The position numbers and the translations under genes are program-made. Of a stretch of 64,000 nt of DNA, positions 4,592 to 28,471 are shown one piece after another (the first letter of the stretch is position 1; each line of letters opens with the position of its first letter). The DNA is from Candidatus Limnocylindria bacterium (GTDB lineage Bacteria > Chloroflexota > Limnocylindria > QHBO01). The DNA lies in the NCBI GenBank assembly GCA_038322875.1, contig JBBQGI010000003.1:820-64819 (forward strand), written 5' to 3'. Under the pieces are notes generated by a model. The model had not been told where the DNA came from and did not search any database. It saw only the letters and a program-made list of their open reading frames with translations.

Positions 4592-4986
4592 ATGCGACTG
4601 GAGATCCCCACGGTCGAGACCGACAGGCTTCGGCTGCGGCCATTCACTCAGGCCGATGTGATGGCCTGTTCGAACTGTCCCAGGATCCCGATGTGGTTCG
4701 TTTCGTCGGCGATCGACGCGTTCCGACGCTCCAGGAGGCGTGGAGGGCGGTTGCGGGCTGGATCGGGCACTGGGCGATGCGAGGCTACGGTCAGTGGGCC
4801 ATCGAGGAGCGGGATGGTGGCCGCTTCATCGGTCGCGCCGGCGTCAGCAACCCCGCGGAGTGGCCCGGCCCCGAGGTTGGGTATCTGCTCGGTCGACAGT
4901 GGTGGGGACACGGCTACGCTGCAGGGGCCGCCCGCGCGGCGATCTACGGCGTTAGCGACGCTGAGTGGCAGGCGAGGCGGTCATGA
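4592..4986 (+). pseudogene. GNAT family N-acetyltransferase (RimJ/RimL-like) with apparent frameshift
   Basis: N-terminus (MRLEIPTVETDRLRLRPFTQADV) is in frame 2. The remainder (DGLFELSQDPDVVRFVGD...GYLLGRQWWGHGYA) continues in frame 1. The frames switch at about 4655-4662. Confidence 0.6.
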
Positions 4987-6254: not shown

Positions 6255-6272
6255 GCGGTCGGAATTCTCGCT

Positions 6273-7166
6273 CTAGGCGAGCGCCTCGAGGACCGGCAGG
6301 TGCTCGGTCGTCCCATCGGGCGCCACGGGGATCACGGCAACGTGGGTGGCGCCGGCGGCGACCATCTGCGCGATCCGGACGCGGATGAACTCGACGTCGC
6401 CCCAGGCCACCATCGCATCCACCAGCCGATCGCTACCCGGCTTCTCCCAATCAGCTTCCGCAAAGCCTTGCGCGGCCCAGCTCGCCTGGTATGCCGGCGT
6501 GCGCAGGTAGGGCGCGAGGTAGGCGCGCGCCGCAGCGCGAGCCAACTCGGGATCGGTCTCGAGGACGGCGGGCATCGAGACGGCCAGCACAGGCCGCCGA
6601 CCCGGGCTTGCGGCATCCAGGACACCCCGCGTCCACCTCACGCGTTCAGGGGTGACGAGGTACGGGAAGGCACCATCGGCCTCGGTCGCGGCCAAGGTCA
6701 GCATGCGTTCGCGAATGGCTGCGACCAGGACCGGCGGCTCGGCCACGGCATCGGCTCCTGGTCCACGGTAGATGGCAGCCCGATATGCGGCGAGGTACTC
6801 GCGCATACGAGTCAGCGGCCGCTCGTAGGTGTGGCCGCGCAGCTTCTGCGCCAGGTGCAGGTGCGACACCCCCAGGCCCAGCACGAAGCGCCCGTCGGTT
6901 GCCTCCTGCAGCGTCATGGCTGCCATGCGGGTCGTCTGCGCATCGTGGCCCCAGATGCTCACAATGCTCGTTCCCAATCGGATCGAGGTCGTCTCCCCCG
7001 CCAGCAGGCCGAGCAGCGTGAACGACTCGCGGCCGACCGTCTCGGGCACCCAGAGCGTGCCGTAGCCGAGCTCGTCGACGCGGCGCGCGTACGCCCGGGC
7101 ATCCTCGATCGACAGCGAGTCGAGGTGGCCCCATGCTCCCAGTCGCCCCAGGTCGACGGCGCTCAT
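6273..7166 (-). CDS. LLM-class (luciferase-like) F420-dependent oxidoreductase
   Basis: 297 aa; TIM-barrel LLM motifs (LWVPETVGRESFTLLGLLAGETTSIRLGTSIVSIW...GRFVLGLGVS); start set at the ATG forming an ATGA overlap with the upstream gene; the track ORF is over-extended to 8300. Confidence 0.75.
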   Translation of the reverse strand: MSAVDLGRLGAWGHLDSLSIEDARAYARRVDELGYGTLWVPETVGRESFTLLGLLAGETTSIRLGTSIVSIWGHDAQTTRMAAMTLQEATDGRFVLGLGVSHLHLAQKLRGHTYERPLTRMREYLAAYRAAIYRGPGADAVAEPPVLVAAIRERMLTLAATEADGAFPYLVTPERVRWTRGVLDAASPGRRPVLAVSMPAVLETDPELARAAARAYLAPYLRTPAYQASWAAQGFAEADWEKPGSDRLVDAMVAWGDVEFIRVRIAQMVAAGATHVAVIPVAPDGTTEHLPVLEALA

Positions 7167-8287: not shown

Positions 8288-9267
8288 AGGCGGCCCTCAC
8301 CGAAGCGCATGGTCAGCCGTTCCAGCGACCAGCGCAGCTCCTCCCAGCGGCCGACCCGTGCCTCGAAGGCGGGCAGCTGCCTGGCGGCAGGGTCGGCGAG
8401 ACGGTCGAAGGCCAGACCGATGGCGACGATGCGTGGCTCCTCCTCGCTCGGCTGTCGCGCCCGGGTGGCCTGCTCCAGGCGACCGATCAGGAGGCGCGCA
8501 ATCCAGTCCGGCTCGAGCGTCGGCTCGGGGAAGGCCAGCTCGACGTTGAGCTTCGGGGCATCCTCCAGGCGTAGGTTCAGCGTGGCCCGGCCGGGTGCCA
8601 GGTGGCGGGCACGCAAGGTGTCGCACAGCTCCGCGACGATGCGGCGCAGGGCGAGCGCGATCTCGGTGATCCCCTCTGCCGGCGGCTCGAAGGCCGCATG
8701 GGCTCGCAGCCGTTCCGGGCGGCGGCGCGGGACGAGCGGGCGTGGATCGCGGCCGCGGGCGAGCTGCTGGAGCCGCTCCCCGGCCGATCCGAACTGGGCG
8801 CCGACCGCGGATCGCGGGAGCGCGGCCAGCTGGCCCATGGCGGTCAGCCCGAAGAGGGCGAAGCGGGCACGCGTCTCCGGATCGGCGGTGAGCAGGTCCA
8901 GGGAGAGCGGCACGAGGGCGGCGGCGCCTTCGTGAGGAGGGATGGTGAGGAAGACGGCCGGCGCCCCTGGCCGTTGGGGGCGTGCCAGGCGCGCGGCCAG
9001 GACTGCCAGCCAGCGGTTGTCCCCCACTCCCGCCCGCACGGGGAGCGGTGCGATCCCGCGCGCCAGCGTCACCGCCCGCGCTGCGATCCGGCGCTCATCG
9101 CCGAGGAGCGGCCCGAGGCCCGTGATGTCGACCAGCGCCACTCCCCGGTCGACCGCCTCGATCCGCGGGGAGAGGTCATCGAGGCGATCCAGCATGGCAT
9201 CGAAGGTGGCGCTCTCCCCCTCCGGCGTGCGCAGCGCCGGCCAGACGAGCGCCAGCAGCCGCGTCAC
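8218..9267 (-). CDS. imuB: ImuB-like inactive Y-family DNA polymerase homolog
   Basis: 349 aa; N-terminus (MTRLLALVWPAL...) resembles the start of ImuB/DinB-like proteins but lacks catalytic acidic residues; lies immediately downstream of imuA' in a LexA-box operon. Confidence 0.55.
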   Translation of the reverse strand: MTRLLALVWPALRTPEGESATFDAMLDRLDDLSPRIEAVDRGVALVDITGLGPLLGDERRIAARAVTLARGIAPLPVRAGVGDNRWLAVLAARLARPQRPGAPAVFLTIPPHEGAAALVPLSLDLLTADPETRARFALFGLTAMGQLAALPRSAVGAQFGSAGERLQQLARGRDPRPLVPRRRPERLRAHAAFEPPAEGITEIALALRRIVAELCDTLRARHLAPGRATLNLRLEDAPKLNVELAFPEPTLEPDWIARLLIGRLEQATRARQPSEEEPRIVAIGLAFDRLADPAARQLPAFEARVGRWEELRWSLERLTMRFGEGRLWRASHDRPSASLPEHRSRLVEL

Positions 9268-9285
9268 GCGACCGCTCCCTTGTCC

Positions 9286-9446
9286 CGCTTGCGCTCAGCG
9301 TCAGTAACGACCAAGTAGCGCCAGGTCGCTGCCGTTTCGGGGGACGAGAGCGCCTCTTCTTGCCTGCTACCGACGCTGAGCGCAACCCACGGCCAAGGAA
9401 CGCCCAGAGAGCGACCCTGCTTGGCCGTTAGCGACGCTGAGCGCAA
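9286..9446. repeat. inverted/direct repeat element in the imuA-imuB spacer (core GACGCTGAGCGCAA x3)
   Basis: TTGCGCTCAGCGTC at 9289-9302 is the perfect reverse complement of GACGCTGAGCGCAA at 9372-9385 and 9433-9446. The extended 21-nt arms CGTTAnnGACGCTGAGCGCAA lie at 9286-9308 (inverted) and 9426-9446. Confidence 0.6.
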
Positions 9447-9468
9447 ATCGTTGGGCACCGCGGCGGCC

Positions 9469-10242
9469 TCAGGCCGAGACGACGCGGAGGGCGGGAAGCT
9501 CCTCGTGCTCCACCGCCTCGCGCGGGGAGGCAGCGGAGCGCAGGAGCGGATCGATCCGGCGCCCCTCACCGAACCACAGGTCCAGCTCGGCGCGGCCGCC
9601 GGCGAGCGCCCAGCGGTGGCGCGTGACGGTCGCCTCCACCCGCTGCCCGACCAGGTCCTGCCCGACCGCCAGCCAGGCGCGCCGCCCCAGCGCCACTCGA
9701 ACCCCGGCCACTCGACCCGCAGCCTCGCGGCCACGCGGCCCGGCGAGCAGCAGGCCCGTGCCGCCGGCGCGCAGCAGCAGGTCGGCCAGGCGGTCGAGGC
9801 CGCGCGGCGGCGGGCCATCGGCCAGGTCGAGGACGAGGAGATCGATCAGGCGGCTGCGGGCCAGCCAGCCGGCCAGCTCCACCGCCTCGGCGGGATCGGC
9901 GGGGCGGACGACCAGCAGCCACTCCAGCGCGACGCCCAGCCGGGCAGCGGTCGCCGGGTCGAAACGGCCAGAGGGATCGAGCCAGGCGACCAGCCCACCG
10001 GCGGCCTGGCAGGCGGCCAGCGATCCGAGCGCCAGGCTGGTGGCGCCGCCACCGGTCGGAGCATCGAGCAGGGCCAGGGCGCCGCGCGGCCAGCCGCCGC
10101 TGCGCAGCGCCGCGTCGAGCCCAGGCTGACCCGTGGGAAGGGGATTGGCTACGACCATCGGTCCGGGGTCCGCACCCTGCCGCAGCCCATGACCGCGGAG
10201 CGCTTCGAGGAGCTCGGAGAGTGGCTGGACGGCATCGGTCAT
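9469..10242 (-). CDS. imuA: ImuA' (RecA/SulA-like cell division inhibitor family) mutasome protein
   Basis: 257 aa; RecA-fold P-loop-like region (LPTGQPGLDAALRSGGWPRGALALL); position first after a LexA box and before imuB. Confidence 0.75.
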   Translation of the reverse strand: MTDAVQPLSELLEALRGHGLRQGADPGPMVVANPLPTGQPGLDAALRSGGWPRGALALLDAPTGGGATSLALGSLAACQAAGGLVAWLDPSGRFDPATAARLGVALEWLLVVRPADPAEAVELAGWLARSRLIDLLVLDLADGPPPRGLDRLADLLLRAGGTGLLLAGPRGREAAGRVAGVRVALGRRAWLAVGQDLVGQRVEATVTRHRWALAGGRAELDLWFGEGRRIDPLLRSAASPREAVEHEELPALRVVSA

Positions 10243-15734: not shown

Positions 15735-16543
15735 GCACCACCGACCCTGCCATGGCGCGCGGCTTCGACGCCTGGGCCGATGAGTACGACCGGTTCCGCC
15801 CGGGATATCCCGACGAGGTATTCGAGACCATCCAGGCGAGGCTGCAGCTCTCGGACAATCCCTCGGTGGTGGACCTGGGAGCCGGCACTGGCCGCGCCAG
15901 CCTGGCGATGGCGGCGCTGGGCTGGCGGGTGACGGCGGTTGAGCCGGGCAGATCGATGCTGGAGCTGTTGCGCGAGACCGCATCCGAGAATGGGCTGTTG
16001 GTGTCGACCATCCAGGCCAATGCCGAGGTCACCGGCCTGGACCCGACATCGGTCGACCTGGTCACCGCCGCCCAGGCGTTCCACTGGTTCGACAAGCAGG
16101 CTGCCATGGAGGAGATCGCTCGCATCCTGAAGCCCGGCGGCGGCCTGGCGCTGATCTGGAATGTCCGTGACGCCGAGCGTTCGCCATTCCTGGCCGCCTA
16201 CGCGGCCCTGCTGAAGGATTCGAGCGAGCGCGCCGACGATTCCGGCATCGGGCGCTATGAGTCAAGAGGCCGAGCCGGGACGCAACGGGCGCTGGAGGAG
16301 GCTCCGGGCTTCGATGCACCCGAGCTGATCGAGCTGCATCAGCACGTGGCCATGACCGCCGAGCAGTTCGTGGGGATGGCATTCACCGCGTCGTACGTGC
16401 GAGTCGGCATGTCGTCCGAGCGGCAGCATCAATTCCGACGCGACCTGGTCGCGCTGCTGGAACGCCACCGGCTGGGGGACGGGAAACCATTTGCCGTCCC
16501 GTATCGGGTCGACCTGTGGATCACACGAAGGAGCGGAGCATGA
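15731..16543 (+). CDS. class I SAM-dependent methyltransferase
   Basis: VVDLGAGTGRASLAMA motif I; ATGA overlap with the upstream GNAT. Confidence 0.85.
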   Translation: MSTTDPAMARGFDAWADEYDRFRPGYPDEVFETIQARLQLSDNPSVVDLGAGTGRASLAMAALGWRVTAVEPGRSMLELLRETASENGLLVSTIQANAEVTGLDPTSVDLVTAAQAFHWFDKQAAMEEIARILKPGGGLALIWNVRDAERSPFLAAYAALLKDSSERADDSGIGRYESRGRAGTQRALEEAPGFDAPELIELHQHVAMTAEQFVGMAFTASYVRVGMSSERQHQFRRDLVALLERHRLGDGKPFAVPYRVDLWITRRSGA

Positions 16544-19089
16544 CCACCACGGAGCGCTTCGACCCACGGACCTACGAGCCGGCCTGGCGCGAGCGCTGGG
16601 CCGCCGATGAGCTCTATCGGGCCGATGACGACGACCCGCGGGCCAAGCACTACCTGCTGACCATGTACCCGTACCCCTCGGGCGACCTGCACATCGGTCA
16701 CTGGTATGCCGCCACGGGGCCCGACATCGTGGCGCGCATGCGCCGCATGCAGGGCCTGAACGTGATGTTCCCGATGGGCTTCGACTCCTTCGGGCTGCCG
16801 GCCGAGAACGCGGCGATCGATCGCGGCGTGCACCCCTGGGAGTGGACGAACGCCAACGTGGACCGGATGCGGACCCAGTTCCGCTCAATGGGCTGCATGT
16901 TCGACTGGAGCCGCGAAGTCGTCACCCACGACCCCGCCTACTACCGCTGGACGCAGTGGCTCTTCGTGCAGTTCTTCCGCGCGGGGCTGGCGTATCGGGC
17001 CATGGCGCCGGTCGACTGGTGCCCCAAGGACCAGGTGGTGCTGGCACGAGAGCAGGTTGAAGGCGCCGATCGGCACTGCTGGCGCTGCGGCACGCCGGTC
17101 ATCAAGCGCGACCTGGAGCAGTGGTTCTTCCGGACCACCAAGTACGCCGATGAGCTGCTGGACTTCAGCAAGATCGACTGGCCGGACCCCATCCGCCTGA
17201 TGCAGACCAACTGGATCGGTCGCAGCGAGGGCGCCGAGATCGACTTCGCGGTGGAGGCCGATGGGGTGGCGCCGATCCGGGTCTTCACCACCCGTCCCGA
17301 CACCATCTTCGGCGCAACCTTCATGGTGCTCGCCCCTGAGCACCCGGCGGTGGCCCCGCTGACGGCCCCGGAGCGGGCCGAGGAGGTGGCCGCGTACACC
17401 GCCGCGGCGCGCCGCGAAACCGAGATCGAGCGGATGAGCACCGAGCGCGAGCGGAAGGGGGTCTTCATCGGCTCGCATGCGGTCAACCCCATGACCGAGG
17501 AGCGCATCCCGATCTGGATCGCCGACTACGTGCTGCCCGGCTACGGCACGGGCGCGATCATGGGCGTCCCCGCGCACGACGAGCGCGACTTCGCCTTCGC
17601 CACCCGCTACGACCTGCCGATCCGCTACGTGGTGCTGCCGCGAGGCGGGACGGCGCCGCAGGGCGAGGCCTTCGTGGCCCACACCGCGGACGAGGTGCTG
17701 GTCGGGTCGGGCGACTTCACGGGCATGACCGCGGCCGAGGGGATCGCGGCCATCACCGCGGAGCTGGCACGCCGCGGGCAGGGGGAGGCGGCGATCACCT
17801 ACAAGATCCGCGACTGGCTGATCAGCCGGCAGCGCTACTGGGGCGCCCCGATCCCCATCGTCTACTGCGACGAGCACGGCGCGCAGCCGGTGCCGGAGGA
17901 CCAACTGCCGGTGCTGCTGCCGCACGACGTGGACTTCGCGCCCACCGGCGTGTCGCCGCTGCAATCGAACGAGGAGTTCCTGAACGCGACCTGTCCGGTC
18001 TGCGCCGGACCGGCGCGCCGCGAGACGGACACGATGGACACCTTCGTGGACTCGTCGTGGTATTTCCTGCGCTACGCCTCGCCGCACGATGAGGAGCGCG
18101 CGTGGGATTCGGCCGCGGTGGAGGACTGGCTGCCGGTCGACCTGTACACCGGCGGCGCCGAGCACGCGGTCCTGCACTTCCTGTACGCCCGCTTCTTCGT
18201 CAAGGCGCTGCGCGACATGGGGCAGCTGAACTTCGACGAGCCGTTCATGGCGGTGCGCAACCAGGGGCAGATCCTGGGCGCCGACCACCACCGCATGAGC
18301 AAGTCGCGCGGCAACGTCGTCAACCCTGACGACCTGACCTCGCGTTTCGGCTCGGACACAGTGCGCTGCTTCCTGATGTTCATCGGGCCGTGGGACATGG
18401 GCGGGCCGTGGAACCCGTCGAGCATCGAGGGGGTGCATCGGTTCCTGGGTCGAGTCTGGGCGGTGGCCCAGGCTGGCCCGGGCGGGCAGCCTCGGCATGT
18501 TCCCGGGATGCCACCCCCACAAAGCCTGGCCGGTGAGCAGCCCGGCAGCGGCGGAGAAGGGCGTGAGACGCTGGGCGCCATCGAGGGGGGTCAGCGCGGG
18601 CTGCGGCATGCGACCCATGTGGCCATCAAGGAGGTCGGCGAGGACTACGCCGAGTTCCACTTCAATACCGCGCTCTCGAAGATGATGGGGCTGACCAACG
18701 CGCTGGGCGACGCGCGCGACGCCGGCCTGGCCGGGACCGATGCCTACGCCGAGGCGGTCGACGCGCTGCTCCTGCTGCTGGCGCCGATGGCGCCGCACAT
18801 CAGCGAGGAGCTGTGGTCGCGGCGCGGGAAGCCGTACAGCATCCACCAGCAGGCGTGGCCGGCCTACGACGCCGGGCTCGTCATCGCCGACACGATCGAG
18901 CTGCCGGTGCAGGTCGACGGGAAGCTGCGCGATCGGTTGGTGGTGGCCCCCGATACGGCTCCCGACGAGATCGAGCGGCTGGCGTTGGCCAGTGAGCGGG
19001 TGCAGGCCCACCTGAAGGGACGCACGCCTCGCAAGGTGGTGCAGATCCCCGGGCGCCTGGTGAATATCGTCACGCCCAAGAACGACTGA
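16540..19089 (+). CDS. leuS: leucine--tRNA ligase
   Basis: 849 aa bacterial-type LeuRS; HIGH (PSGDLHIGHW) and KMSKS (RMSKSRGN) motifs; GAAGGAG SD; ATGA overlap with the upstream gene. Confidence 0.95.
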   Translation: MTTTERFDPRTYEPAWRERWAADELYRADDDDPRAKHYLLTMYPYPSGDLHIGHWYAATGPDIVARMRRMQGLNVMFPMGFDSFGLPAENAAIDRGVHPWEWTNANVDRMRTQFRSMGCMFDWSREVVTHDPAYYRWTQWLFVQFFRAGLAYRAMAPVDWCPKDQVVLAREQVEGADRHCWRCGTPVIKRDLEQWFFRTTKYADELLDFSKIDWPDPIRLMQTNWIGRSEGAEIDFAVEADGVAPIRVFTTRPDTIFGATFMVLAPEHPAVAPLTAPERAEEVAAYTAAARRETEIERMSTERERKGVFIGSHAVNPMTEERIPIWIADYVLPGYGTGAIMGVPAHDERDFAFATRYDLPIRYVVLPRGGTAPQGEAFVAHTADEVLVGSGDFTGMTAAEGIAAITAELARRGQGEAAITYKIRDWLISRQRYWGAPIPIVYCDEHGAQPVPEDQLPVLLPHDVDFAPTGVSPLQSNEEFLNATCPVCAGPARRETDTMDTFVDSSWYFLRYASPHDEERAWDSAAVEDWLPVDLYTGGAEHAVLHFLYARFFVKALRDMGQLNFDEPFMAVRNQGQILGADHHRMSKSRGNVVNPDDLTSRFGSDTVRCFLMFIGPWDMGGPWNPSSIEGVHRFLGRVWAVAQAGPGGQPRHVPGMPPPQSLAGEQPGSGGEGRETLGAIEGGQRGLRHATHVAIKEVGEDYAEFHFNTALSKMMGLTNALGDARDAGLAGTDAYAEAVDALLLLLAPMAPHISEELWSRRGKPYSIHQQAWPAYDAGLVIADTIELPVQVDGKLRDRLVVAPDTAPDEIERLALASERVQAHLKGRTPRKVVQIPGRLVNIVTPKND

Positions 19090-19096
19090 AATGTTC

Positions 19097-19120
19097 GCTA
19101 AGCGGTCGCCAAGCGGTCGC
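19097..19120. repeat. tandem 10-nt direct repeat AAGCGGTCGC-c-AAGCGGTCGC at the leuS/island junction
   Basis: Two adjacent copies beginning 11 nt after the leuS stop, exactly where GC content drops. Confidence 0.5.
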
Positions 19121-19166
19121 AGAGTAGGCTGACCAACATGCCGCACGCAATCGGGATTACGACGGG

Positions 19167-19379
19167 ATGACGCACTCAGTGCGACAGATTCGCCTCCAAA
19201 GTGACGAACTGACCTTCTGGGTGGAGGTCCGCGCTTGCACTGAAGACCGGCGGCTAGCAGTCGCTTTTCTCGCTGGAGATCCCGAAATCGGAATGGGTCC
19301 AACCGAGCAGGATGCGATTCTCGATGCCCTCAAACCTCTAGGCGAAGCGGCTTCCCGCCTTCTTACCGAGAGCCTCTAA
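19167..19379 (+). CDS. hypothetical protein (island)
   Basis: 70 aa ORF in the low-GC region; no recognisable motif. Confidence 0.25.
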   Translation: MTHSVRQIRLQSDELTFWVEVRACTEDRRLAVAFLAGDPEIGMGPTEQDAILDALKPLGEAASRLLTESL

Positions 19380-19687
19380 TAGTCCGGGAGGTCCTGAATG
19401 GCTAGGCGATAAGGTGCGCGGCGCCGGGACGATTGTGGTCGACGCGACCTCGCTCAAGGCCGCGAGCATGCTGCTCGGCATGGCATCTCCCCGGAATCGA
19501 GGGCATTAAGAAATTCAAGGAAGCGACCGAGGTCGGACTCGACGTCGTCGAGTACCTGTCGAAGGCGGATGCGCCCGCCCAGCCGCAGGACACCTGACCC
19601 TTGGGAGTGCGCGTAACTGCACGCTACTCCCAGGCCACCACGTTGTGGTATTGGCCTGCTTACCTCCTGGCCGGCTACCGCTCCGGA

Positions 19688-20146
19688 CTAGTAGCCCGCG
19701 GCGAACTCTCTCGCCTGAGCCTCAGTAACCCCAGGGCCTATCCAGGCCGTATACCGACAGCCCGCCTCCGCCCAGCTGAGGGTGATTTGCCCTCGCGGTG
19801 GATCTCCTATGTTGAAAAGCGCTGCGTGCTGCCCGCGAACGACAACGGCGCTCGGGTCATTCGGCGCTACGGTTGCGGGATCGATGATCGCGAACTGGCC
19901 AACAAGCTGACTGACCTCATTCTGTCCATCACCCCAAACGTACAAGACCCCGTAGTCGCCCTGGACTTGGTGAGGAGATCCGGGATCCCCGCCCAAGGGA
20001 AGTACCCTCGGGGCCACGGCGCTGCACGCTGAGGTAGAGGGTGAGATAGACGGTAATGCCGACTGGGAGGTGGTGCATGCCCCGAACAAAAGCGCCAGGG
20101 TGATTGCCACGGTCGCGCGAATGAATACCCTGCTAGTCATCGGCAA
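19688..20146 (-). CDS. lipoprotein (island cargo)
   Basis: Signal peptide with lipobox (ITLALLFGAC|T); last gene of the minus-strand island operon. Confidence 0.5.
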   Translation of the reverse strand: MPMTSRVFIRATVAITLALLFGACTTSQSALPSISPSTSACSAVAPRVLPLGGDPGSPHQVQGDYGVLYVWGDGQNEVSQLVGQFAIIDPATVAPNDPSAVVVRGQHAALFNIGDPPRGQITLSWAEAGCRYTAWIGPGVTEAQAREFAAGY

Positions 20147-20735
20147 CCGGCACTAACCCCGGGCCAATTCCGTGGTGACGACCGTCCGCTACAAACACGA
20201 CCAAATCATATGTCGTTAGAAGCGTTCCGCGACCCTGAACGACGCCCAATGGGTCAACAAGGAACGCTGACGGGGTGGGAAGGAAGGCAGCATCGGGCTC
20301 CGAGATGACCACCCAGTCACCGGCCGATGGGGTGCCTACGGTTCCCACCGTTAGCACATGCAACTCGTAGTCGAGGACCATCGGCCGCACATCATTCAGG
20401 CCGGCAAGGATCGTTGTGCATGCCTCGCAATCGGCCTTGACCAAGATCAGCAGAGCCCATCGCGAAGTGAGAATGGCGGCGATATGGGACGAGACGGGCC
20501 GGCCCACAAGCAGGTAGTCCGTGCTGGGCCAATTTGGTTCATCGTGGTCGGATTCTGAGCCGTGTCCCAGATCCATCGCGTGGTCGGTTGCCAGATGGTC
20601 ACGCCAAGATCGCTGTACACCCTCCATCGCGAGGGCTTGTCGGCTCACGACCACCGTCAGAATTCCGATCAGTGAGAGTTGGACGAGCTCGGTTAGCTCC
20701 ACGAGGGCGAGCCTCGACGCGGTAGCAAATGCCAT
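20133..20735 (-). CDS. thioredoxin-fold thiol-disulfide oxidoreductase (MauD/TlpA-like)
   Basis: CxxC motif (LLILVKADCEACTT) in a thioredoxin-like context; N-terminal TM anchor if started at MAFATAS...; immediately downstream of the MauE-like gene; start is uncertain (track ORF 20133..20972). Confidence 0.5.
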   Translation of the reverse strand: MAFATASRLALVELTELVQLSLIGILTVVVSRQALAMEGVQRSWRDHLATDHAMDLGHGSESDHDEPNWPSTDYLLVGRPVSSHIAAILTSRWALLILVKADCEACTTILAGLNDVRPMVLDYELHVLTVGTVGTPSAGDWVVISEPDAAFLPTPSAFLVDPLGVVQGRGTLLTTYDLVVFVADGRHHGIGPGLVPVADD

Positions 20736-21175
20736 GCGACCGGGACTACAAGCGCAATGGATAGGATCGCAGTTGGGGTCAGGCTGCGGGATGGCCCGAG
20801 GACAGCAACACCTACGGAGGCCACCACCAAGAACGCATTTCGCAGGAAGCTCGTTCGGTCTGGTGGTCGCGTTGATGGTCCAAAGCAACCACAGCCGATT
20901 GACAATGCCCGGCTCCTCCATAGCGCCCCGGTTGCGACAACTAGACCGAAAGCAGACAGCAGCCCAGGCCACACCGGGAAGCTTGCCAGGACGATCGCAA
21001 CGGCGACTTCAGCACCGACCGTCACTGGCGCGAGCGCATTTGGCAAAGGCAGGCCAAGGGCCGTAAGCCATTCCACGTGGTTTCGCCAACTGATCGCCTT
21101 GCCGACCGCTGCCAACAGCCAGACCGCGGCGAGACCTACCGCTAAGACCGTCGCCAGGACTGGTGCTTCAAACAT
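20693..21175 (-). CDS. MauE/DoxX-family membrane protein (methylamine-utilisation MauE-like)
   Basis: 160 aa; 4 TM; conserved GCGCFG motif typical of MauE-like proteins. Confidence 0.6.
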   Translation of the reverse strand: MFEAPVLATVLAVGLAAVWLLAAVGKAISWRNHVEWLTALGLPLPNALAPVTVGAEVAVAIVLASFPVWPGLLSAFGLVVATGALWRSRALSIGCGCFGPSTRPPDRTSFLRNAFLVVASVGVAVLGPSRSLTPTAILSIALVVPVAWHLLPRRGSPSWS

Positions 21176-21412
21176 CGACTCGGGCCCGACGCAAATAGTC
21201 CTGCGCTGGCTTCAGGTCCATCGCCTCAAGGCCCTCAGGGGTTGAGATGAACCAGCGCTGAGCCCCTATCGAACTGTCGGCCAGAACCGCTCGTGCCTCG
21301 AATCCGCGCCCAGCGTAGGGGGCCGGCAAATCGAACAACAGGATGCGCGTCCCGCGTCGGTGCTCGATCCACGCGTCCAACAGCGTTCCCTCCGACGTCG
21401 GCGGACCTATCC

Positions 21413-21952
21413 TCACGGGTCGATGCAGGGATGGTCGCAACAGTGGTACTGATCGAACTCGCGACGCTTGGCACGAATTCGTTCACGGAAGGCTATTCCG
21501 TTAGCGTTCCAGCTGTTGTTGGTCAAACTCTGTTGGGTAAAGTTGGTCCCCATGCATACCGTGCCTGTGCATCCCGATGTGCCGCATGGATTCCAAAACT
21601 TACAGTTGGCGTGCGGTCTCAATCGGTCAGCGAGGTCCGGCGTTGCCAGGTGTGAGACCAAGAATGCCAGGGAGCATTCCTGGAAGAAGCTAGGGCCGGA
21701 GATGTTCCCTGATCCGCACCCACCGAAGCACCCGTTGAGCATGATGCCCATGGTTTTGCAGTTGCAGCCACATTGGCTGATGGCCTGAGCGTCATCCCAA
21801 CTGCTGCAAACCACGATCTGACCGCTATAGCGGACGAAGAAATCGTAGCCAGATGTGCAGTAGTTGGTCGTTGTGTTCTGGTGGGCGTTGGGTGAGCCAG
21901 TATGGTGCACGACCACATAGGCTCGCCGAGGAGCCGTCCCATAGTGGCTCAT
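21413..21952 (-). CDS. N-acetylmuramoyl-L-alanine amidase, PGRP/Amidase_2 (T7-lysozyme-like) domain with Cys-rich C-terminus
   Basis: By-eye alignment with T7 lysozyme: YVVVHHTGS / GYDFFVRYSGQIV / TMGIMLNGCF correspond to the FVHCSAT / GYHFIIKRDG / IGVCLVGG blocks; many Cys in the C-terminal half. Confidence 0.65.
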   Translation of the reverse strand: MSHYGTAPRRAYVVVHHTGSPNAHQNTTTNYCTSGYDFFVRYSGQIVVCSSWDDAQAISQCGCNCKTMGIMLNGCFGGCGSGNISGPSFFQECSLAFLVSHLATPDLADRLRPHANCKFWNPCGTSGCTGTVCMGTNFTQQSLTNNSWNANGIAFRERIRAKRREFDQYHCCDHPCIDP

Positions 21953-22284
21953 GTCAAAGCGTCCCGGGTGTATTCCTTGTCGAGTCGGGCGAGGTCGCCC
22001 GGCTCAATCACTTCCACTATGTCGAAGCCCGTCTCTGGCACATCCCACATTGTTTCAGCGGGCGAACACGGCAGCTCTGATCGGCGAGTGTCGGGCTGGG
22101 GCAGACGTGCTTCCTCGCCCGCGGCTCGAGCGGCCGCGGGGAGCGCATGGCTCAACACAACGCTTGCCGAAGTGAAAAGAGCAAGCTCGACAAACCGACG
22201 TCTGCTCAGGTTCGCGCCAGGCTGGGAATCCACGGGCGCCTTCGGGGGCTCCGGGTCGGGGGTCGCCCATTGGTTTCGCGGCAT
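21949..22284 (-). CDS. Tat-signal protein (possibly the N-terminal part of the downstream amidase)
   Basis: Twin-arginine signal (SRRRFVELALFTSASVVLSHALPAAARA); ATGA overlap with the amidase ORF. Confidence 0.45.
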   Translation of the reverse strand: MPRNQWATPDPEPPKAPVDSQPGANLSRRRFVELALFTSASVVLSHALPAAARAAGEEARLPQPDTRRSELPCSPAETMWDVPETGFDIVEVIEPGDLARLDKEYTRDALT

Positions 22285-22342
22285 GTTCCTCGCTCCGGTC
22301 CATCGTTAGGGATTGCGAATGCAAAAGCAAGTCCCGTTCAGC

Positions 22343-22582
22343 TCACTTCTGGTGCCCGTGACGGCTATTGAGCCACAGCGCCAGGCCGAGTACCCCAGCC
22401 GTCGCGGCTCCCGCGCCGATAGACAGCCCGGCCCCACACGGGACGCCGTAGCCGAACACTGACGAACACTGCGGAGGTAGGGAGTCGACCCCGCCCGTGG
22501 GTGCAAGCAGCACCCACACGACGAGACCGGCGAGGAGCGGAACAGCAATCCTGACTCCCATCAGCCAAGAACCCTGCAGCAT
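22343..22582 (-). CDS. small membrane protein
   Basis: Two hydrophobic helices; lies between the protease and the Tat/amidase genes in the same strand array; the track ORF starts at 22636. Confidence 0.35.
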   Translation of the reverse strand: MLQGSWLMGVRIAVPLLAGLVVWVLLAPTGGVDSLPPQCSSVFGYGVPCGAGLSIGAGAATAGVLGLALWLNSRHGHQK

Positions 22583-22601
22583 CAGCGTCACTCTTCGGCA
22601 T

Positions 22602-23858
22602 TCAGTTGACAGCGACGTTGACGCCCAGGGCGTCATCTATCCGATCGGCTCGGGAGAACAAGTCTCGGTCGAAAGGCCAGACCGGATCGTAGCGCCAGCC
22701 CTGATGGAGCCCGTAGGCAGTATTGCCCCAGTACACGGACCCACCACTGTCGCCGGGAGCCGCCAATCTCGCCGCCATCTGCACGAGGCTGCACGCAGCT
22801 CCGTTGCAGACGTTGAGCTGGATGACTTGCTGGCAGTCCTGGAAGCTCGCGATGCCGTTCTTACAGAGGGACTGCCCCACGACCGGAGCACCCACGGCAG
22901 CGACATCGCGCCTGTTGACTTCGGTTGCGTTGGCGTTACCCGCGTAGAAATCATCGGGTTTAGCCTGAGGTCCGGTATGCCACTGGAAGTCACCGTGAGC
23001 CCCGATATGGCCTGCCTGAATGTTCAGAGCTACACCGTCGTCGGATAGAGTATTCGAGCAATGTCCAGCGGTGCTAATGCCACTCACCCCTGAGGAGGTC
23101 CTGACCACAAACCCTGACGTGCAAACCCCCGAAAGACTCTCGCCGCCCATGTGTTCGGTGTTGCTGTCAGTACCGCCCAGAGCCGGGAGGTTTGATCGGA
23201 CCACGGAGACGGTGATGCTGTCGAGAATGTCTCCTGCGCCGGAATCGATGAGCTTCTCCGTGGCGCCTGCGCGAAGGTCATCGAGCACGGAATCTGCCAC
23301 GCCGCCGTCCAGTGCAACGACAGTCGTAATCTGGCGGGTATCAAAGTCGAACGAGGTCGACGCGTCTCGGACCCCGGCCGTGTCGAATGCGGCGTAATGG
23401 ACTGTCGCAATCGCCTTCTCAAGTTCGAGCTCGGTGAACCCCAAGTCGGTTTGCACCTCGACCTTAACGTTTGCGTGGCTCTTACCGAACGTGTCGATGA
23501 TCGCGAGGGCGCTATCAGGGGCGCCAGCCGCGAAGGCAACCCACGCGCCCCCAGCATCGACGATCTCTGCACCGGTGAAGGCCTCTGGAGCCACCTCGCG
23601 GACCGTCGACACCGCAAGGGCAAAATTATCGTTCCACGCGTAGCGGTCGATTGCCTCCTGGAGGGACATACCATGTTGACCAGCGACGGCTTTCAGGTCC
23701 TCGAGCTCCGCATCACTGATAGGATCATCGATCTGAGGCTGCGCCACGTCCGGGAGGGGCAGGCTCTCGCCTCCGGCGGCAGTGTCTGTCTGTGCCACGA
23801 GAACGGCCGTCATCAGCGTCAGCATTACGACAACCGACAGGCCACCCCGTCTCACCAT
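22602..23858 (-). CDS. secreted S1E family serine peptidase (alpha-lytic protease/streptogrisin-like) with N-terminal pro-domain
   Basis: Signal peptide; catalytic His (TAGHC) and Ser (GDSGGSVY) motifs; ~160 aa pro-region typical of alpha-lytic protease precursors. Confidence 0.8.
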   Translation of the reverse strand: MVRRGGLSVVVMLTLMTAVLVAQTDTAAGGESLPLPDVAQPQIDDPISDAELEDLKAVAGQHGMSLQEAIDRYAWNDNFALAVSTVREVAPEAFTGAEIVDAGGAWVAFAAGAPDSALAIIDTFGKSHANVKVEVQTDLGFTELELEKAIATVHYAAFDTAGVRDASTSFDFDTRQITTVVALDGGVADSVLDDLRAGATEKLIDSGAGDILDSITVSVVRSNLPALGGTDSNTEHMGGESLSGVCTSGFVVRTSSGVSGISTAGHCSNTLSDDGVALNIQAGHIGAHGDFQWHTGPQAKPDDFYAGNANATEVNRRDVAAVGAPVVGQSLCKNGIASFQDCQQVIQLNVCNGAACSLVQMAARLAAPGDSGGSVYWGNTAYGLHQGWRYDPVWPFDRDLFSRADRIDDALGVNVAVN

Positions 23859-24027
23859 GGCCCTTCCTTTCAGCTATCAGCCTTCAGCATTACCGGGGGG
23901 ATCCCGGAATCGATTCCCGCTAAAGCGCGGGCGCCCGGCGTCCCACTATCATATGACTCCTCGTCAAGCCTGAAATTACCGGGCGTCGCCCGGACCAACG
24001 AGCCAACCGGGGCATGGACCGTTTCCG

Positions 24028-24636
24028 GTGCTCGTTCGCCAGCGCAACTCGCACCTGATCGAGGGGGTGCATCGCTTCCTGGGTCGCGTCTGGCCGGTGG
24101 CCCAGGCGACGGGCGGCGCAGGCGACGCCGGCGGGGCGGAGCGCGGGCTGCGGCATGCCACCCATCGGGCCATCAAGGAGGTCGGCCAGGACTACGCCGG
24201 GTTCCACTTCAACACGGCGCTCTCGAAGATGATGGGGCTGACCAACGCGCTCGGCGACGCACGCGATGCCGGCCTGGCCGGGACCGATGCCTACGCCGAG
24301 GCGGTCGATGCGCTGCTCTTGCTGCTGGCGCCGATGGCGCCGCACATCAGCGAGGAGCTGTGGTCGCGGCGCGGGAAGCCGTACAGCATCCACCAGCAGG
24401 CCTGGCCTGCCTTCGACCCTGCGCTGGTCACGGCCGACACGATCGAGCTGCCGGTGCAGGTCGATGGCAAGCTGCGCGATCGGCTGGTGGTGGCACCGGG
24501 GACCGCCCCTGAGGAGATCGAGCGCCTAGCATTGGCGAGCGAGCGAGTGCAGGCGCACCTGAAAGGCCGGACACCGGCCAAGGTGGTCCAGATCCCCGGT
24601 CGCCTGGTGAATATCGTCACGCCGGGGAGTAATTGA
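24028..24636 (+). pseudogene. leuS 3' remnant (diverged duplicate of leuS codons ~640-849)
   Basis: Homology to leuS 18440..19089 begins at IEGVHRFLGRVW. It is about 88% nt identical by eye, lacks a ~117-nt segment present in the intact gene, and has no 5' part, start or RBS. Confidence 0.85.
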
Positions 24637-24681
24637 AGTGTCCGCGGGTGCCCAGCCGGAGACCGGGTTCAGTGACTCAGT

Positions 24682-25605
24682 TCAGATTGGTCGGCGCCGC
24701 CACACAACCCACGCGGCCAGTCCGGTCGACCCAGAGGTGACGACCGCCAGAACGCCCGCTTCACGAGCTACCCACGTCCAATAGTCGCTACCAGGAATCA
24801 TCAAGTACCGGCCGAATTCCGTCCCGGGCGGCAGATTTTCGATATTTCGCTCCGTGGTCACCGTCCCGTCCGGAAGGATCGCCACTGGCCCGAGCGTCAT
24901 CCCGTTTATGAACGGCGAATCCGGCGTGAGATCTGAAGGGTCGATCACGACTGCCTCAGCGCGACGCCAGACATCCAGGGCAAGCGTCACTCCGACGATG
25001 ACGCTCGCGGACAAGGCAATGGCTACCAAGACCGCCGGCAGTGTGCGGCCGAGGAAGGCACCCGCAAGGACTGCAAGTAGAAGCGCCACGATGCCCCTCA
25101 TCGGGACAATCAAGCCTCGCTGATCGTACCGAAGCAGGCCCGGGTCATCCCCCGCGAGGCGGGTCCAAGCCAGTTGCTCACTGGCCGCCGCCATCACCAG
25201 CAATAGCGCCACTGCAACCAGCAGCAACGGCCAGACTCGGCCTGCCAACCAACCGACACGATTGACGGCAAGGGACCAGGAGAGTTGAGCCGTGCGGAGT
25301 TCCAATTCGCGAGCCACGATCGGGACTCCCAGGACAACCCCCGCGAGCATCGGCGCAGGCACGACGAGCCACATCGCCAGGCTTGCGCTTTGGTCCCAGA
25401 TGGCGAACTGCGGCTGCACGACACCGCAATTGGTTGCGTTCACTGCCGTAAGCCGGAAGCAGCTTGGATATTGGGCGGCGAGCCCGCCTAGCCGCCAGCC
25501 GATGAAGAGCACCGCCGCCAACCAGGCGCTTACCGCCAAGACGATCGCGGTCACCTCAAAACGGTGGAGCCGGAATACCAGTCGCATCCAGGTCAAGCTC
25601 CTCAA
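24682..25605 (-). CDS. ABC-2 type transporter permease
   Basis: 307 aa; 6 TM; coupled by an ATGA overlap to the upstream ATPase. Confidence 0.7.
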   Translation of the reverse strand: MRSLTWMRLVFRLHRFEVTAIVLAVSAWLAAVLFIGWRLGGLAAQYPSCFRLTAVNATNCGVVQPQFAIWDQSASLAMWLVVPAPMLAGVVLGVPIVARELELRTAQLSWSLAVNRVGWLAGRVWPLLLVAVALLLVMAAASEQLAWTRLAGDDPGLLRYDQRGLIVPMRGIVALLLAVLAGAFLGRTLPAVLVAIALSASVIVGVTLALDVWRRAEAVVIDPSDLTPDSPFINGMTLGPVAILPDGTVTTERNIENLPPGTEFGRYLMIPGSDYWTWVAREAGVLAVVTSGSTGLAAWVVWRRRPI

Positions 25606-26456
25606 TTCACGGCCTCCCCCGACTGGCGAAGAGCAGAAAGATGGCCCAACACGATCTCCTCCAGTGAAGCCGGTCGCGACTCCGGAGGTTCGGCAGCACG
25701 TTCATGGTGAATGAGGCTGAGCGCCATCCCGCCGGGGTCGGGGAACTGGCCCACGATCTGTTCCTGGTGACTCACCGACGATATCGAGAAGCACGCCAGG
25801 GCATCCTCAATGGAGGTCTGCAACAGCAGCTTCCCGCTACCTAGCACGATGAGCCGGTCGCACGCCTGCTCAATATCTGTGACGATGTGGGATGAGAGAA
25901 GGGCCGTCGTACCTTCGCCTCTGACGGCGCCGACGACAAGCTGGAGGAATTCGCGCCTGGCGAGCGGATCCAGCTGGGCGAGTGGCTCGTCCAAGAGCAG
26001 AACCTCAGGGTGGGTCGCCAGAGCGATGGACAGGATGACCTGAGCCTGTTGGCCGCCGGAGAGCCGACCGCCTAGGCTTTCGAGCGGAATGCCCAACGCA
26101 TCAAGCCGACTTCGTGCCATTTCGCGGTCGAATGCTGGTCGCAGGAACCCGGCCATGCGCAGGTGCTCCTCGACTGAAAGGCTCTCGTAGAGTGCGGGTG
26201 ACTGGGAGACGTAGCCAACGCGACTCAGTGCGCTTCGCCGGTCGCGCCAGGCGTCATGGCCCGCAACGAGAGCGGAACCGGTGGTGGGTCGCTCAAAGCC
26301 GACCCAACTCCGCAGGAGTGTGGACTTCCCGGCACCATTCGGCCCAACCAGTGCCGTGATGCCGCCTGCGGCGATCTGGAGGTTGATCCCGCGCAATGCC
26401 CATCGGCGGCGCCCAAAGCGCTTGCCGAGGTCATTCGCCCCAAGGATGGGCATCAC
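25602..26456 (-). CDS. ABC transporter ATP-binding protein
   Basis: Walker A (GPNGAGKST), ABC signature (LSGGQQAQV), Walker B (LLLDEP). Confidence 0.9.
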   Translation of the reverse strand: MMPILGANDLGKRFGRRRWALRGINLQIAAGGITALVGPNGAGKSTLLRSWVGFERPTTGSALVAGHDAWRDRRSALSRVGYVSQSPALYESLSVEEHLRMAGFLRPAFDREMARSRLDALGIPLESLGGRLSGGQQAQVILSIALATHPEVLLLDEPLAQLDPLARREFLQLVVGAVRGEGTTALLSSHIVTDIEQACDRLIVLGSGKLLLQTSIEDALACFSISSVSHQEQIVGQFPDPGGMALSLIHHERAAEPPESRPASLEEIVLGHLSALRQSGEAVN

Positions 26457-26574
26457 CGGGAGATTCGGTTCAAGCGACCGAATTGTACCGTGCCAGAACT
26501 ATTGTCGGCGGCCACAATCATGCGATACGGTGACGCTCAACCTATCCTAATTGCCAAGAGGAAGGAGCGTCGCG

Positions 26575-27006
26575 ATGCGAATGAGGGAGTCGACTCACAG
26601 ATCGATCGGGAAGCAGCTGCGGACCCTTGTCGTGGCCGTGGTCTTGGCGAGCGTCACTGTTGCAGGGGCGCCGAAACCAGTATCAGCGTCAACTCCTTGC
26701 TCTGTAACTCTCTTTGCGCCAACGACCAACGGGGTGGTAGCCACGCATGTCGCGTACGGTGACTGCCCGCCTAGCCCCACGATGGATTGGATCAAGGGGC
26801 AGCTTTACAGCCTCTTCTTCGCCTGGCCGACTCTTCAGGCGAGTTGCATTAACAACAACAACAGTTCGAATCCTCAAGGGTGCCAGTCGCAATACAACTG
26901 CAACGGATCAGGGACCCTCGAGCACTTCGGCAAGGTCAACGTCCGTGACATCGCTGGCGGAGAGACAGGCTGGCGCGAAAGCGGGCACGCGTGGCTCACG
27001 TGCTGA
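26575..27006 (+). CDS. small secreted Cys-rich protein (bacteriocin/toxin-like, unknown family)
   Basis: GAGGAAGGAG SD 7 nt upstream of the ATG; Sec signal peptide; ~100 aa mature part with 7 Cys and an NNNNSSN tract; low GC; divergent from the ABC exporter. Confidence 0.55.
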   Translation: MRMRESTHRSIGKQLRTLVVAVVLASVTVAGAPKPVSASTPCSVTLFAPTTNGVVATHVAYGDCPPSPTMDWIKGQLYSLFFAWPTLQASCINNNNSSNPQGCQSQYNCNGSGTLEHFGKVNVRDIAGGETGWRESGHAWLTC

Positions 27007-27060
27007 CGGCCTTCAGCTTATTGCGATAACGCCGGGTACGGAGAACTCGCTTTCTGTCGA

Positions 27061-27669
27061 ATGGCCCGACGCAAGGACATGACTGCGATCACTGCGCTCT
27101 TCGCACTGATCGCAGTCAGCATGTCCGGCTGCCTTGCGCTCCAATCTAGCAGCGATGCCAATAGTCACTCTCGCCTAGTGGCTGCTACTTGGTTTGATGC
27201 GGCCTCCAAGGATCAGCAGAGTCTCCTAGAAGACGAGATCATCACCGCCGATGAGTACGGGCAGGCCCTGAATGCTGGAAGGCGGTGCATGGAAGACAAA
27301 GGGTTCCATGTTTCTCCCCTCCAGGACCTGCCTGATAGAATCCGGCGCGACTTCATCGTCTACGCCGGCACGCGGTCAGATGACGATGTCACCCCCGAAT
27401 GGCAACGGTGTCGCGATCAACACTACGGCGTCGTTGAAGGCATATGGCTTCTCCAGCACGTTCGCCAGGACACGAGCAAGGTCGAGGAAGAACTCCTCAG
27501 GTGTCTCGCTGGCAACAGCATCACGGGAGCTACCATTGGCATGGCCGACTCGGACCTCGTTCAGTTGCTGTACCAGCGGGCGGCTTCGGAGCAGGCGTGG
27601 ACTTGTCGGGAAGTCTTTCTTATCACGTCTGGGAACTTGCAACCACTTCCGCCAGGAGGCCCGCCGTAG
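27061..27669 (+). CDS. lipoprotein (unknown function)
   Basis: Lipobox signal (ALIAVSMSGC|L); low GC; 202 aa. Confidence 0.55.
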   Translation: MARRKDMTAITALFALIAVSMSGCLALQSSSDANSHSRLVAATWFDAASKDQQSLLEDEIITADEYGQALNAGRRCMEDKGFHVSPLQDLPDRIRRDFIVYAGTRSDDDVTPEWQRCRDQHYGVVEGIWLLQHVRQDTSKVEEELLRCLAGNSITGATIGMADSDLVQLLYQRAASEQAWTCREVFLITSGNLQPLPPGGPP

Positions 27670-27865
27670 TCCCCGGCATGGCCAAAGAAGGCTATGACCG
27701 AGCTGGACGACTAACTGGGTCCCCTGATGAGCCGACGGTAAGCATCGGGTAAGGCACAGGGCCCTAGGCTGGCCGTCCTGTCTCCGGAGCCCGCCGTCGA
27801 GTGCCCGGACGTCGGGTTCCGGACAGGTCATCCATTCGCTCGCCTCCCGCGAGGGTGGTGGACCG

Positions 27866-28471
27866 ATGTCCGTCGGCGACCGGATCGCCGTGGCTGCACT
27901 CGCGGCCGCCCTGGTGGCCGTGGGGTTGGGGGCCTGGCTACTGCTCGCTGTCGGAGCGGCCGCGGACCCTGCCGGTCAAGGGGTGCTCGACCCCTTCGGC
28001 GACGCGTCGGCTTCCTTCGCCGCTTCCCTCGACGCTGGTTCGGTGGTCGTCGACGTGGAAGGTGCAGTGCTGCATCCGGGCATCATCGAGCTGCCCGCTG
28101 GGGCGCGCGTGGCCGAGGCACTCGACGCGGCGGGAGGCTATTCACCCCAAGCCGACCTCGTCGCCTCAGCGGCGCAGGTGAACCTGGCGGCGGTGGTGCA
28201 CGACGGCCAGCAGATCGTGGTGCCGACCATCGGCGCACCGGCGGTGGGTGGCGGGACCGGCGACGGTGGGACGAGCGGCGGGCTGGTCAATCTGAATGCG
28301 GCCGGCCCCGATGCCCTCGATGCCCTACCCGGAATCGGACCGGTCACCGTGCAGAAGATCGTGGCCGCTCGCGCTGAGCAGCCATTCGCCACCCTCGACG
28401 AGCTGGTCACGCGCAAGGTCATGACCAATTCGCAGCTCGACAAGATCCGCGATCTCGTAACGCTCGGCTGA
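27866..28471 (+). CDS. comEA: competence protein ComEA (helix-hairpin-helix DNA-binding)
   Basis: N-terminal TM; SLBB-like region; C-terminal tandem HhH (LNAAGPDALDALPGIGPVTVQKIVAAR). Confidence 0.85.
   Translation: MSVGDRIAVAALAAALVAVGLGAWLLLAVGAAADPAGQGVLDPFGDASASFAASLDAGSVVVDVEGAVLHPGIIELPAGARVAEALDAAGGYSPQADLVASAAQVNLAAVVHDGQQIVVPTIGAPAVGGGTGDGGTSGGLVNLNAAGPDALDALPGIGPVTVQKIVAARAEQPFATLDELVTRKVMTNSQLDKIRDLVTLG

Follow-up and report, generated by a model that had tools for sequence, protein, structure and literature searches.

A horizontally acquired four-gene cassette in Candidatus Limnocylindria, built around two undescribed extracytoplasmic protein families and most plausibly a bacteriocin-plus-immunity or resistance module

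Genes and features of the locus

We analysed a stretch of 64,000 nucleotides from a Candidatus Limnocylindria bacterium (contig JBBQGI010000003.1), hereafter called the window, and describe a cassette of four genes at positions 24682 to 27669 of it. An ABC-2-type permease and its ATPase lie on the minus strand, and a small secreted protein and a lipoprotein diverge from them on the plus strand. This is the layout given by an earlier reading of the window made from the sequence alone, which interpreted the locus as bacteriocin- or immunity-like. The cassette is built around two undescribed protein families, and most plausibly it is a new bacteriocin-plus-immunity or resistance module. It is small and self-contained, with four genes in 3 kb. 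Its features and the genes that bound it are the following.

24028-24636, plus strand: leuS 3' remnant, left boundary and outside the cassette; a displaced duplicate with GC 0.70
24682-25605, minus strand: ABC-2-type permease, 307 aa; its start overlaps the ATPase stop by 4 nt
25602-26456, minus strand: ABC transporter ATP-binding protein, 283-284 aa; start ATG 26453 or GTG 26456
26457-26574, no strand assigned: divergent intergenic region of 118 bp, holding the motif CACAATCATGCGATACGGT and the ribosome binding site (RBS) GGAAGGAG
26575-27006, plus strand: secreted protein, 143 aa, founding member of an undescribed family; ATG at 26575
26575-26688, plus strand: signal peptide of the secreted protein, residues 1-38, Sec type, cleavage after VSA
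26689-27003, plus strand: mature part of the secreted protein, 105 aa, 6 Cys, acidic
27061-27669, plus strand: lipoprotein, 202 aa, of an undescribed family; lipobox VSMSG-C
27080-27118, plus strand: hairpin with a 16-bp stem and a 5-nt loop, 74 nt past the stop of the secreted-protein gene
27866-28471, plus strand: comEA, right boundary and outside the cassette, where core composition resumes

Base composition and boundaries

The low GC content claimed by the sequence-only reading holds when computed, with 0.616 (61.6%) over bases 24682-27669 and 0.702 +/- 0.015 in the core (z = -5.7). The core reference consists of 198 equal-sized segments outside 19089-27865, the lowest of which has a GC of 0.671. 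Hence the outcome which that reading had itself named as counting against it, a GC no different from the flanking core, is not what the profile gives. GC at third codon positions (GC3) points the same way, being 0.67-0.73 in the four cassette genes versus 0.80-0.93 in leuS, comEA and comEC. Along the window the profile stays at about 0.70 in the core and drops to 0.58-0.65 between ~19.1 kb and ~27.7 kb, and this low-GC zone is interrupted at 23.9-24.6 kb by the core-like stretch of the leuS 3' copy. The remnant had been recognised correctly: it corresponds to the last ~200 codons of leuS, with 76% amino acid and ~92% nucleotide identity to the 3' end of the intact gene (16516-19089). The recovery of GC, which had been placed at comEA, occurs just ahead of that gene, at 27650-27949, where the value is back at ~0.70. 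The cassette is horizontally acquired and seated between leuS and comEA. No convincing att-type direct repeats were found flanking 24637-27865.

The secreted protein and the lipoprotein

The RBS of the secreted-protein gene is located at 26560-26567, 7 nt upstream of the ATG, and the signal peptide cleavage site has the context VTVAGAPKPVSA followed by STPC. The mature part had been described as about 100 aa long with an Asn-rich tract, and this agrees with the ~105 aa and the tract CINNNNSSNPQGC (C-INNNNSSNPQG-C) seen here. The count of Cys residues had been given as seven and is in fact six, four of which are invariant across the family. The mature protein is also rich in aromatic residues.

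Relatives are scarce. A word-indexed search of 5.8 billion proteins returned only the secreted protein itself together with one relative at 68%, and for the lipoprotein only the lipoprotein itself. When 1.84 billion representatives were searched exhaustively with HMMER, nine credible relatives of the secreted protein (~9 clusters) and two spurious repeat proteins were recovered. The members of this family are ~140-150 aa long, and in 10 of 11 an AXA cleavage site lies 2-3 residues ahead of the first Cys, the lone exception being the decayed member P0002. The last of the four invariant Cys is the C-terminal residue, and a third Cys pair is present in about half of the members. Conserved loops are INNxNS, NG(H/S)GT(D/L)(D/E) and GRDxxGGxSGW, and the mature proteins are uniformly acidic (pI 4.3-5.8).

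The lipoprotein gene starts after a spacing of 54 bases, and the codon of its lipobox Cys24 is 27130-27132. A signal peptide with a lipobox of the pattern [LVIMAG][ASTG][GAS]C identifies the product as a bacterial lipoprotein. The mature protein is acidic, with four invariant Cys and a conserved C-terminal ...PP. All homologues, which were recovered from their loci by tblastn, have the lipobox, the four Cys and a C-terminal ...G(A)xPP; the lipobox was found in 6/6 aligned lipoproteins, in the homologues in the forms LVAC, LAAC, LIAC, LASC and GGC.

Neither protein matches Pfam, NCBIfam, PADLOC or PHROGs. The Pfam result is equally null for all 11 members of the secreted family, and for six lipoprotein homologues both Pfam and PDB sequences are null. 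Sequence-profile searches of the PDB with the two plus-strand proteins gave only noise, the best matches being the BabA adhesin (E 0.11) and a 'cellulose-binding protein' (E 0.023). The statement in the sequence-only reading that neither ORF fits a described family therefore stands, and the library scans gave no housekeeping family for the secreted protein, which was the other result that would have spoken against that reading.

Predicted fold of the secreted protein

A structure prediction of the secreted protein, which had been proposed as a check, was run with AlphaFold2. The model from two sequences was unusable (pLDDT 49), hence we used a model from ten sequences, which is all-beta with seven strands (pLDDT 92.5, pTM 0.81). 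Foldseek against PDB and BFVD returned only generic Ig/Fn3-type sandwiches at a TM of ~0.6, among them CTLA-4, nanobodies, a GbpA domain and phage Fn3 domains. This confident model settles the fold class as an Ig/Fn3-like beta-sandwich of no specific family, and nothing specific to a function follows from it.

Two ideas on the identity of the proteins were tried and rejected. A PTT(N)G motif and weak matches to Der p 1 (E 0.36-0.77) had raised the idea of a chagasin (I42) and papain pair, that is an inhibitor and its protease. The Der p 1 matches extend over a single helix with no conserved His after it, and hhalign gave a probability of 0.2% for the secreted protein against chagasin and of 1.2% for the lipoprotein against C1 peptidases. 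Enediyne apoproteins (PF00960) and tendamistat (PF01356) gave no Pfam match; the corresponding hhalign probabilities were 0.06% and 0.11%, where the reference sequences of neocarzinostatin apoprotein and tendamistat were entered by hand, so the Pfam scan is the firmer test.

The ABC-2 pair

The ATPase contains the ABC_tran domain (PF00005 at 4.1e-27, profile positions 1-137). Its best NCBIfam matches are of the DrrA, lantibiotic-protection and PmtA types, all far under the cut-offs. By hydropathy the permease has six transmembrane (TM) segments, with outside loops at residues ~44-72 and ~215-282, the latter a loop of 68 aa which separates TM5 and TM6. Alignment of homologues revealed two invariant Cys in the first loop, C49 and C60, and a VAILPDG motif is conserved in the permease. 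The permease gene as called on a second contig with the same sequence carries PF26999 (ABC-2_memb_rel) in its record, as do 26 homologues; no match was obtained in our local Pfam copy or in NCBIfam, and we found no mention of PF26999 in the literature. With the ABC_tran domain in the ATPase, a six-TM PF26999 permease and the 4-nt overlap of the genes, the pair is an ABC-2-type transporter. A Bce-type peptide-resistance transporter, which has a 10-TM permease of the FtsX type with a large extracellular domain, was considered and rejected, as the permease is of 307 aa with six TM segments and has no FtsX match.

Conserved neighbourhood

To collect related loci we used one close homologue, permease homologues and pattern scans of genome and metagenome collections, and placed the four proteins in each locus by tblastn. 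The search for homologues with conserved ABC-2 neighbours, which the sequence-only reading had called for, was strongly positive. The secreted family is present in 13 distinct loci (the window, L001/2, L004, L009, L010, L011, L012, L014, L017/21, L018, L019, L020 and L022), and in all 13 the lipoprotein gene follows directly downstream and the ABC pair is adjacent. E-values for the four proteins in the 12 other loci range from 1e-15 to 1e-100. The order secreted protein then lipoprotein is invariant, and the ABC pair is found in three different positions: divergent as in the window in nine loci, upstream as ATPase, permease, secreted protein and lipoprotein in L009 and L014, and downstream as secreted protein, lipoprotein, ATPase and permease in L011 and L022. 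As the linkage has been kept through rearrangement, this is strong evidence that the four genes form a functional unit.

Some loci deviate in content. The cassette of L017/L021 has a second permease, and its lipoprotein gene is truncated and fused to purA. In L001/L002 the whole cassette is decayed: the secreted protein has lost its signal peptide, and frameshifts split the permease into 101 + 198 aa and the lipoprotein into two pieces. Two independent assemblies from different samples share exactly these lesions. We take this whole-cassette decay as a sign of an accessory, mobile character.

Pairwise identities of the secreted protein and the lipoprotein are correlated with a Spearman rho of 0.5, those of ATPase and permease with 0.6, and those across the pairs with 0.25-0.36. 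Likewise, L009 and the window are close in the secreted protein and the lipoprotein (58% and 43% identity) and most distant in the permease (38%). These identities hint that the two pairs might be exchangeable sub-modules.

The four loci from genome assemblies belong to metagenome-assembled genomes (MAGs) of Anaerolineaceae, Candidatus Limnocylindria and Chloroflexia, all Chloroflexota, and of Nocardioidaceae (Actinomycetota); the other loci come from metagenome contigs. In 9/9 other loci where GC was measured the cassette lies below both of its flanks. The cassette of L018 adjoins a phage-type integrase and an OLD-TOPRIM/UvrD pair that is Gabija-like (3861-6829 and 9097-10029), and therefore lies in a defence or mobile island. 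Other neighbours are RHS-repeat genes (L010), an IS481-like gene (L017) and a ThiF-family gene (L009). No relatives of the cassette were found on viral contigs, and searches for an anti-phage or phage assignment gave only generic P-loop matches to the ATPase in PADLOC and no match in PHROGs.

The spacer and the hairpin

The spacer motif CACAATCATGCGATACGGT (26513-26531) is weakly conserved, as the alignment shows look-alikes of the form ATCAT(G/A)(C/T)GATA(G/C)(G/A)G in L002 and L018, in front of the gene for the secreted protein. Judging from these sequences it may be a -10 region common to the loci, or else an operator. A scan for sigma-70 consensus promoters returned nothing, and a scan for intrinsic terminators was likewise uninformative.

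The hairpin of the window falls within the codons of the lipoprotein signal peptide. The 101-nt region 27040-27140 around it has a folding energy of -41.7 kcal/mol (z = -2.85), and 0 of 200 shuffled sequences were as stable. Within 125 nt of the secreted-protein stop, 7/13 loci have a stem of 10 bp or longer (binomial P ~4e-8, with the per-locus expectation of 3% taken from the hairpin density of the same loci), and scans of minimum free energy suggest weaker stems in three more. The six other hairpins are located at the following positions of their loci.

L004 1852-1883
L010 8427-8456
L017 7476-7511
L018 3042-3071
L019 5895-5926
L022 3028-3060

All seven are GC-rich and have no U-tracts; their position is conserved and their sequences are unrelated, and several overlap the start region of the lipoprotein gene. 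We infer from the position that the hairpin is a candidate attenuator or translation throttle, which would keep expression of the first gene above that of the second.

ABC pairs standing alone

Permease homologues at 32-44% identity also occur without genes for the secreted protein and the lipoprotein. Such orphan ABC pairs typically diverge from a HisKA_3 kinase and a NarL-type regulator (L006, L007 and L015). The pair in L007 lies beside an integrase, that in L013 has no two-component system and lies beside IS21, and in L016 an ATPase is found with two permeases. A full cassette with a two-component system exists in L009, and its kinase is homologous over the full length to those beside the orphan pairs. 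It is likely that a two-component-linked ABC-2 module gained the secreted-protein and lipoprotein genes in one lineage. HisKA_3/NarL-linked ABC-2 modules of Gram-positives serve in envelope stress or peptide resistance and are mostly uncharacterised. Compared with the modules of this kind in L006, L007, L015 and L009, which have the same PF26999 pair and the divergent kinase and regulator, the cassette of the window has no two-component system, and it adds two novel extracytoplasmic proteins that the stand-alone modules lack.

Other features around the cassette

A first low-GC block, 19090-24027, separates the intact leuS from its displaced 3' copy. It is bracketed by a duplication of ~600 nt from the 3' end of leuS, at ~92% nucleotide identity (18410-19089 and 24040-24636), with no integrase or tRNA nearby. 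The duplication suggests that the block was inserted by recombination with DNA which carried its own leuS end. This also suggests that leuS, cassette and comEA represent the earlier arrangement, from before the insertion of the first block. The genes of the block are the following.

19688-20146, minus strand: lipoprotein-like ORF
20693-21175, minus strand: MauE-family membrane protein
21413-21952, minus strand: very Cys-rich Amidase_2/PGRP-like protein, 179 aa
21949-22284, minus strand: 111-aa ORF with a twin-arginine-like signal
22602-23858, minus strand: 418-aa secreted protein with a GDSGG motif and no Pfam match

None of them recurs beside the cassette in the other loci, hence no functional link to the cassette was found.

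In four other loci homologous regulators of ~430 aa (40-62% identity), with an XRE helix-turn-helix (HTH) domain and TPR repeats, are encoded ~3-6 kb from the cassette.

L009 14514-15815
L010 2-1246
L017 12161-13462
L018 7077-8375

Their architecture is RRNPP-like, and an ORF of 37 aa lies beside the regulator in L017 and L018. The window has no counterpart of this regulator.

A proposed effector with two layers of self-protection

We tentatively favour, at somewhat less than even chance, the explanation that the cassette is an antagonism locus, with a bacteriocin-like effector and self-protection by the lipoprotein and the ABC-2 pair. The first gene would give a small acidic Ig-like sandwich protein with 2-3 disulfides, exported by Sec and released, which might bind an envelope target on competitors. 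The disulfide-containing lipoprotein of the second gene would intercept the effector on the outside of the producer's own membrane, and the ABC-2 pump would form a second layer of self-protection, while the hairpin past the first gene would hold expression of the effector above that of the lipoprotein. As the secreted protein carries its own Sec signal, the pump is not needed for its export.

Several of the observations above speak for this explanation. A rare, mobile and dispensable cassette with one released product and a partner that stays tethered is the pattern expected for an effector with self-protection. The strict linkage of the four genes and the hairpin past the first gene in 7/13 loci count for it as well, and ABC pairs alone with HisKA_3/NarL partners are what one would expect of resistance-only loci around a bacteriocin.

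The closest analogue in logic is the nisin system, in which NisI and NisFEG likewise place a surface lipoprotein and an ABC-2 pair together with the gene of a secreted product. The divergent kinase and regulator in one locus (L009) are reminiscent of NisRK, and the hairpin past the structural gene is a further likeness, as lantibiotic operons carry a hairpin at this position. Unlike nisin, the product of the cassette is a folded, Sec-exported and unmodified protein of 105 aa, and genes for modification or a leader peptidase are lacking. The cassette usually has one permease, in contrast to LanE and LanG, and two in L017/L021 and L016. The two PF26999 permeases follow the ATPase in L016 (4236-6939) and flank it in L017 (4093-6823), a layout that echoes LanF-LanE-LanG. 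The ATPase scores 114 bits, under the TIGR03740 cut-off of 309.75 for LanF, and the lipoprotein has no sequence similarity to LanI families, so the analogy is one of architecture only.

Other results weigh against an effector. Profile and PDB-sequence searches revealed no homology to a known bacteriocin, immunity protein or lytic enzyme. As modelled, the fold is a generic binding module without a catalytic or pore-forming hint, and the acidity of all family members is unlike most membrane-active bacteriocins. The apparent base state of the ABC pair is two-component-linked and without the secreted protein, which would suit pure resistance equally well. No locus with the lipoprotein only, as expected for orphan immunity, was seen in a search that was weak for this purpose. 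Finally, the source organism is an uncultured MAG. In all, the bacteriocin- or immunity-like interpretation of the sequence-only reading gains from the architecture and from the novelty of the proteins, and loses the lactococcin-972-type membership discussed below. Owing to the lack of toxin homology, the acidic binding-module protein and the resistance-like ancestral context of the ABC pair, resistance and an envelope machine remain serious rivals.

Alternative explanations

The first of these is a resistance cassette without a toxin, in which the ABC-2 pump would expel a membrane compound, and the lipoprotein and the released sandwich protein would bind and neutralise it outside the cell. 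We give this about one chance in four in loose terms, that is, it is rather unlikely. Related ABC pairs stand alone beside homologous HisKA_3/NarL systems in L006, L007 and L015, and the full cassette of L009 retains such a system. The best NCBIfam matches of the ATPase are drug- or peptide-protection types (DrrA, lantibiotic protection, PmtA), an acidic, aromatic-rich Ig-like sandwich is typical of a binder and not of a killer, and the identity correlations (0.5 and 0.6 versus 0.25-0.36) suggest two exchangeable sub-modules. Parallels exist in LanI with LanFEG of non-producers and in YxeA beside YxdLM in Bacillus, as well as in the enediyne apoproteins, which are acidic, disulfide-bonded and Ig-like and whose clusters also encode an efflux pump. 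Neocarzinostatin and tendamistat share with the secreted protein the small size, the Sec signal, the disulfides and the seven-stranded Ig-like sandwich. They differ in the Cys pattern, and no polyketide biosynthesis genes lie near the cassette. Indeed no biosynthetic genes of any kind are nearby, and there is no match to PF00960 or to neocarzinostatin apoprotein. Further, a freely released binder would be a leaky public good where an anchored one is expected, and the strict order of a released and then a tethered protein with a hairpin between them resembles an effector/immunity operon.

Somewhat less probable still is an envelope machine in which the ABC-2 pair works mechanically with the lipoprotein and the sandwich protein, or another surface function without antagonism, for instance adhesion or the binding of glycans. 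Such a machine might export or position a lipid or glycan or regulate an activity at the surface, and FtsEX-PcsB and Lol can serve as analogies. The co-occurrence of the four genes in 13/13 loci agrees with this. So do the conserved disulfides in all three extracytoplasmic parts and the permease itself, whose two sizeable outside loops, invariant Cys and conserved VAILPDG could dock partners. The Asn/Asp/Gly-rich loops of the secreted protein (INNxNS, NGHGTDDW and GRDxxGGxSGW) in our judgement resemble sugar- or Ca-binding loops. However, a housekeeping role fits poorly with the extreme rarity, the patchy spread over two phyla, the foreign composition, the mobile and defence context and the whole-cassette decay, and the ABC pair evidently works without both proteins in other genomes. 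A more specific version, which we consider improbable, is a tripartite extracytoplasmic machine in which the ABC-2 pair, through its disulfide-bonded outside loops, would power or gate a complex formed by the lipoprotein with the Ig-like protein. It would transmit mechanical force much as FtsEX-PcsB or Lol do, with parts unrelated to theirs, and would travel on mobile islands in both Chloroflexota and Actinomycetota.

Lcn972 itself is cationic, has no Cys and has no lipoprotein partner. Membership of the lactococcin-972 family, together with the immunity transporter typical of it, the example given by the sequence-only reading, was not borne out and is very unlikely. The resemblance lies in the outline of the layout only, a small beta-rich protein exported by Sec and encoded beside ABC genes, without modification genes in the cassette. 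PF09683 is matched by 0/11 family members at E <= 10, there is no match to TIGR01653 or TIGR01654, and hhalign gave 0.14% probability against the mature Lcn972 sequence, which was entered by hand, so that here too the Pfam scan is the firmer test. Compared with the Lcn972 cluster (lcn972, orf2, orf3) the secreted protein is acidic, disulfide-bonded and ~40 aa longer, the permease is of a different family (PF26999, six TM) and not the Lcn972-associated membrane protein of TIGR01654, and the lipoprotein is an obligatory fourth part. Lcn972 is nevertheless a precedent for a beta-sandwich bacteriocin that leaves the cell through Sec and whose cluster includes a putative ABC transporter for immunity (PMC4055356).

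That the four ORFs are chance ORFs in drifting composition, for which only the absent annotation speaks, is next to impossible and was rejected, because all four are conserved at the protein level in 12 further loci, and the structure model is confident and the RBS, signal peptides and lipobox are in place.

Implications

If the released protein is an effector, it would define a new family of folded, Sec-exported and disulfide-stabilised protein bacteriocins with two-tier immunity, and a family which moves between Chloroflexota and Actinomycetota. To our knowledge essentially no protein bacteriocins have been characterised from Chloroflexota or from soil or aquatic Actinomycetota. In the case of a resistance module or an envelope machine, the cassette nevertheless adds two uncatalogued families of extracytoplasmic proteins, and would offer a first way into the function of PF26999-type ABC-2 transporters and of the two-component systems that accompany them.

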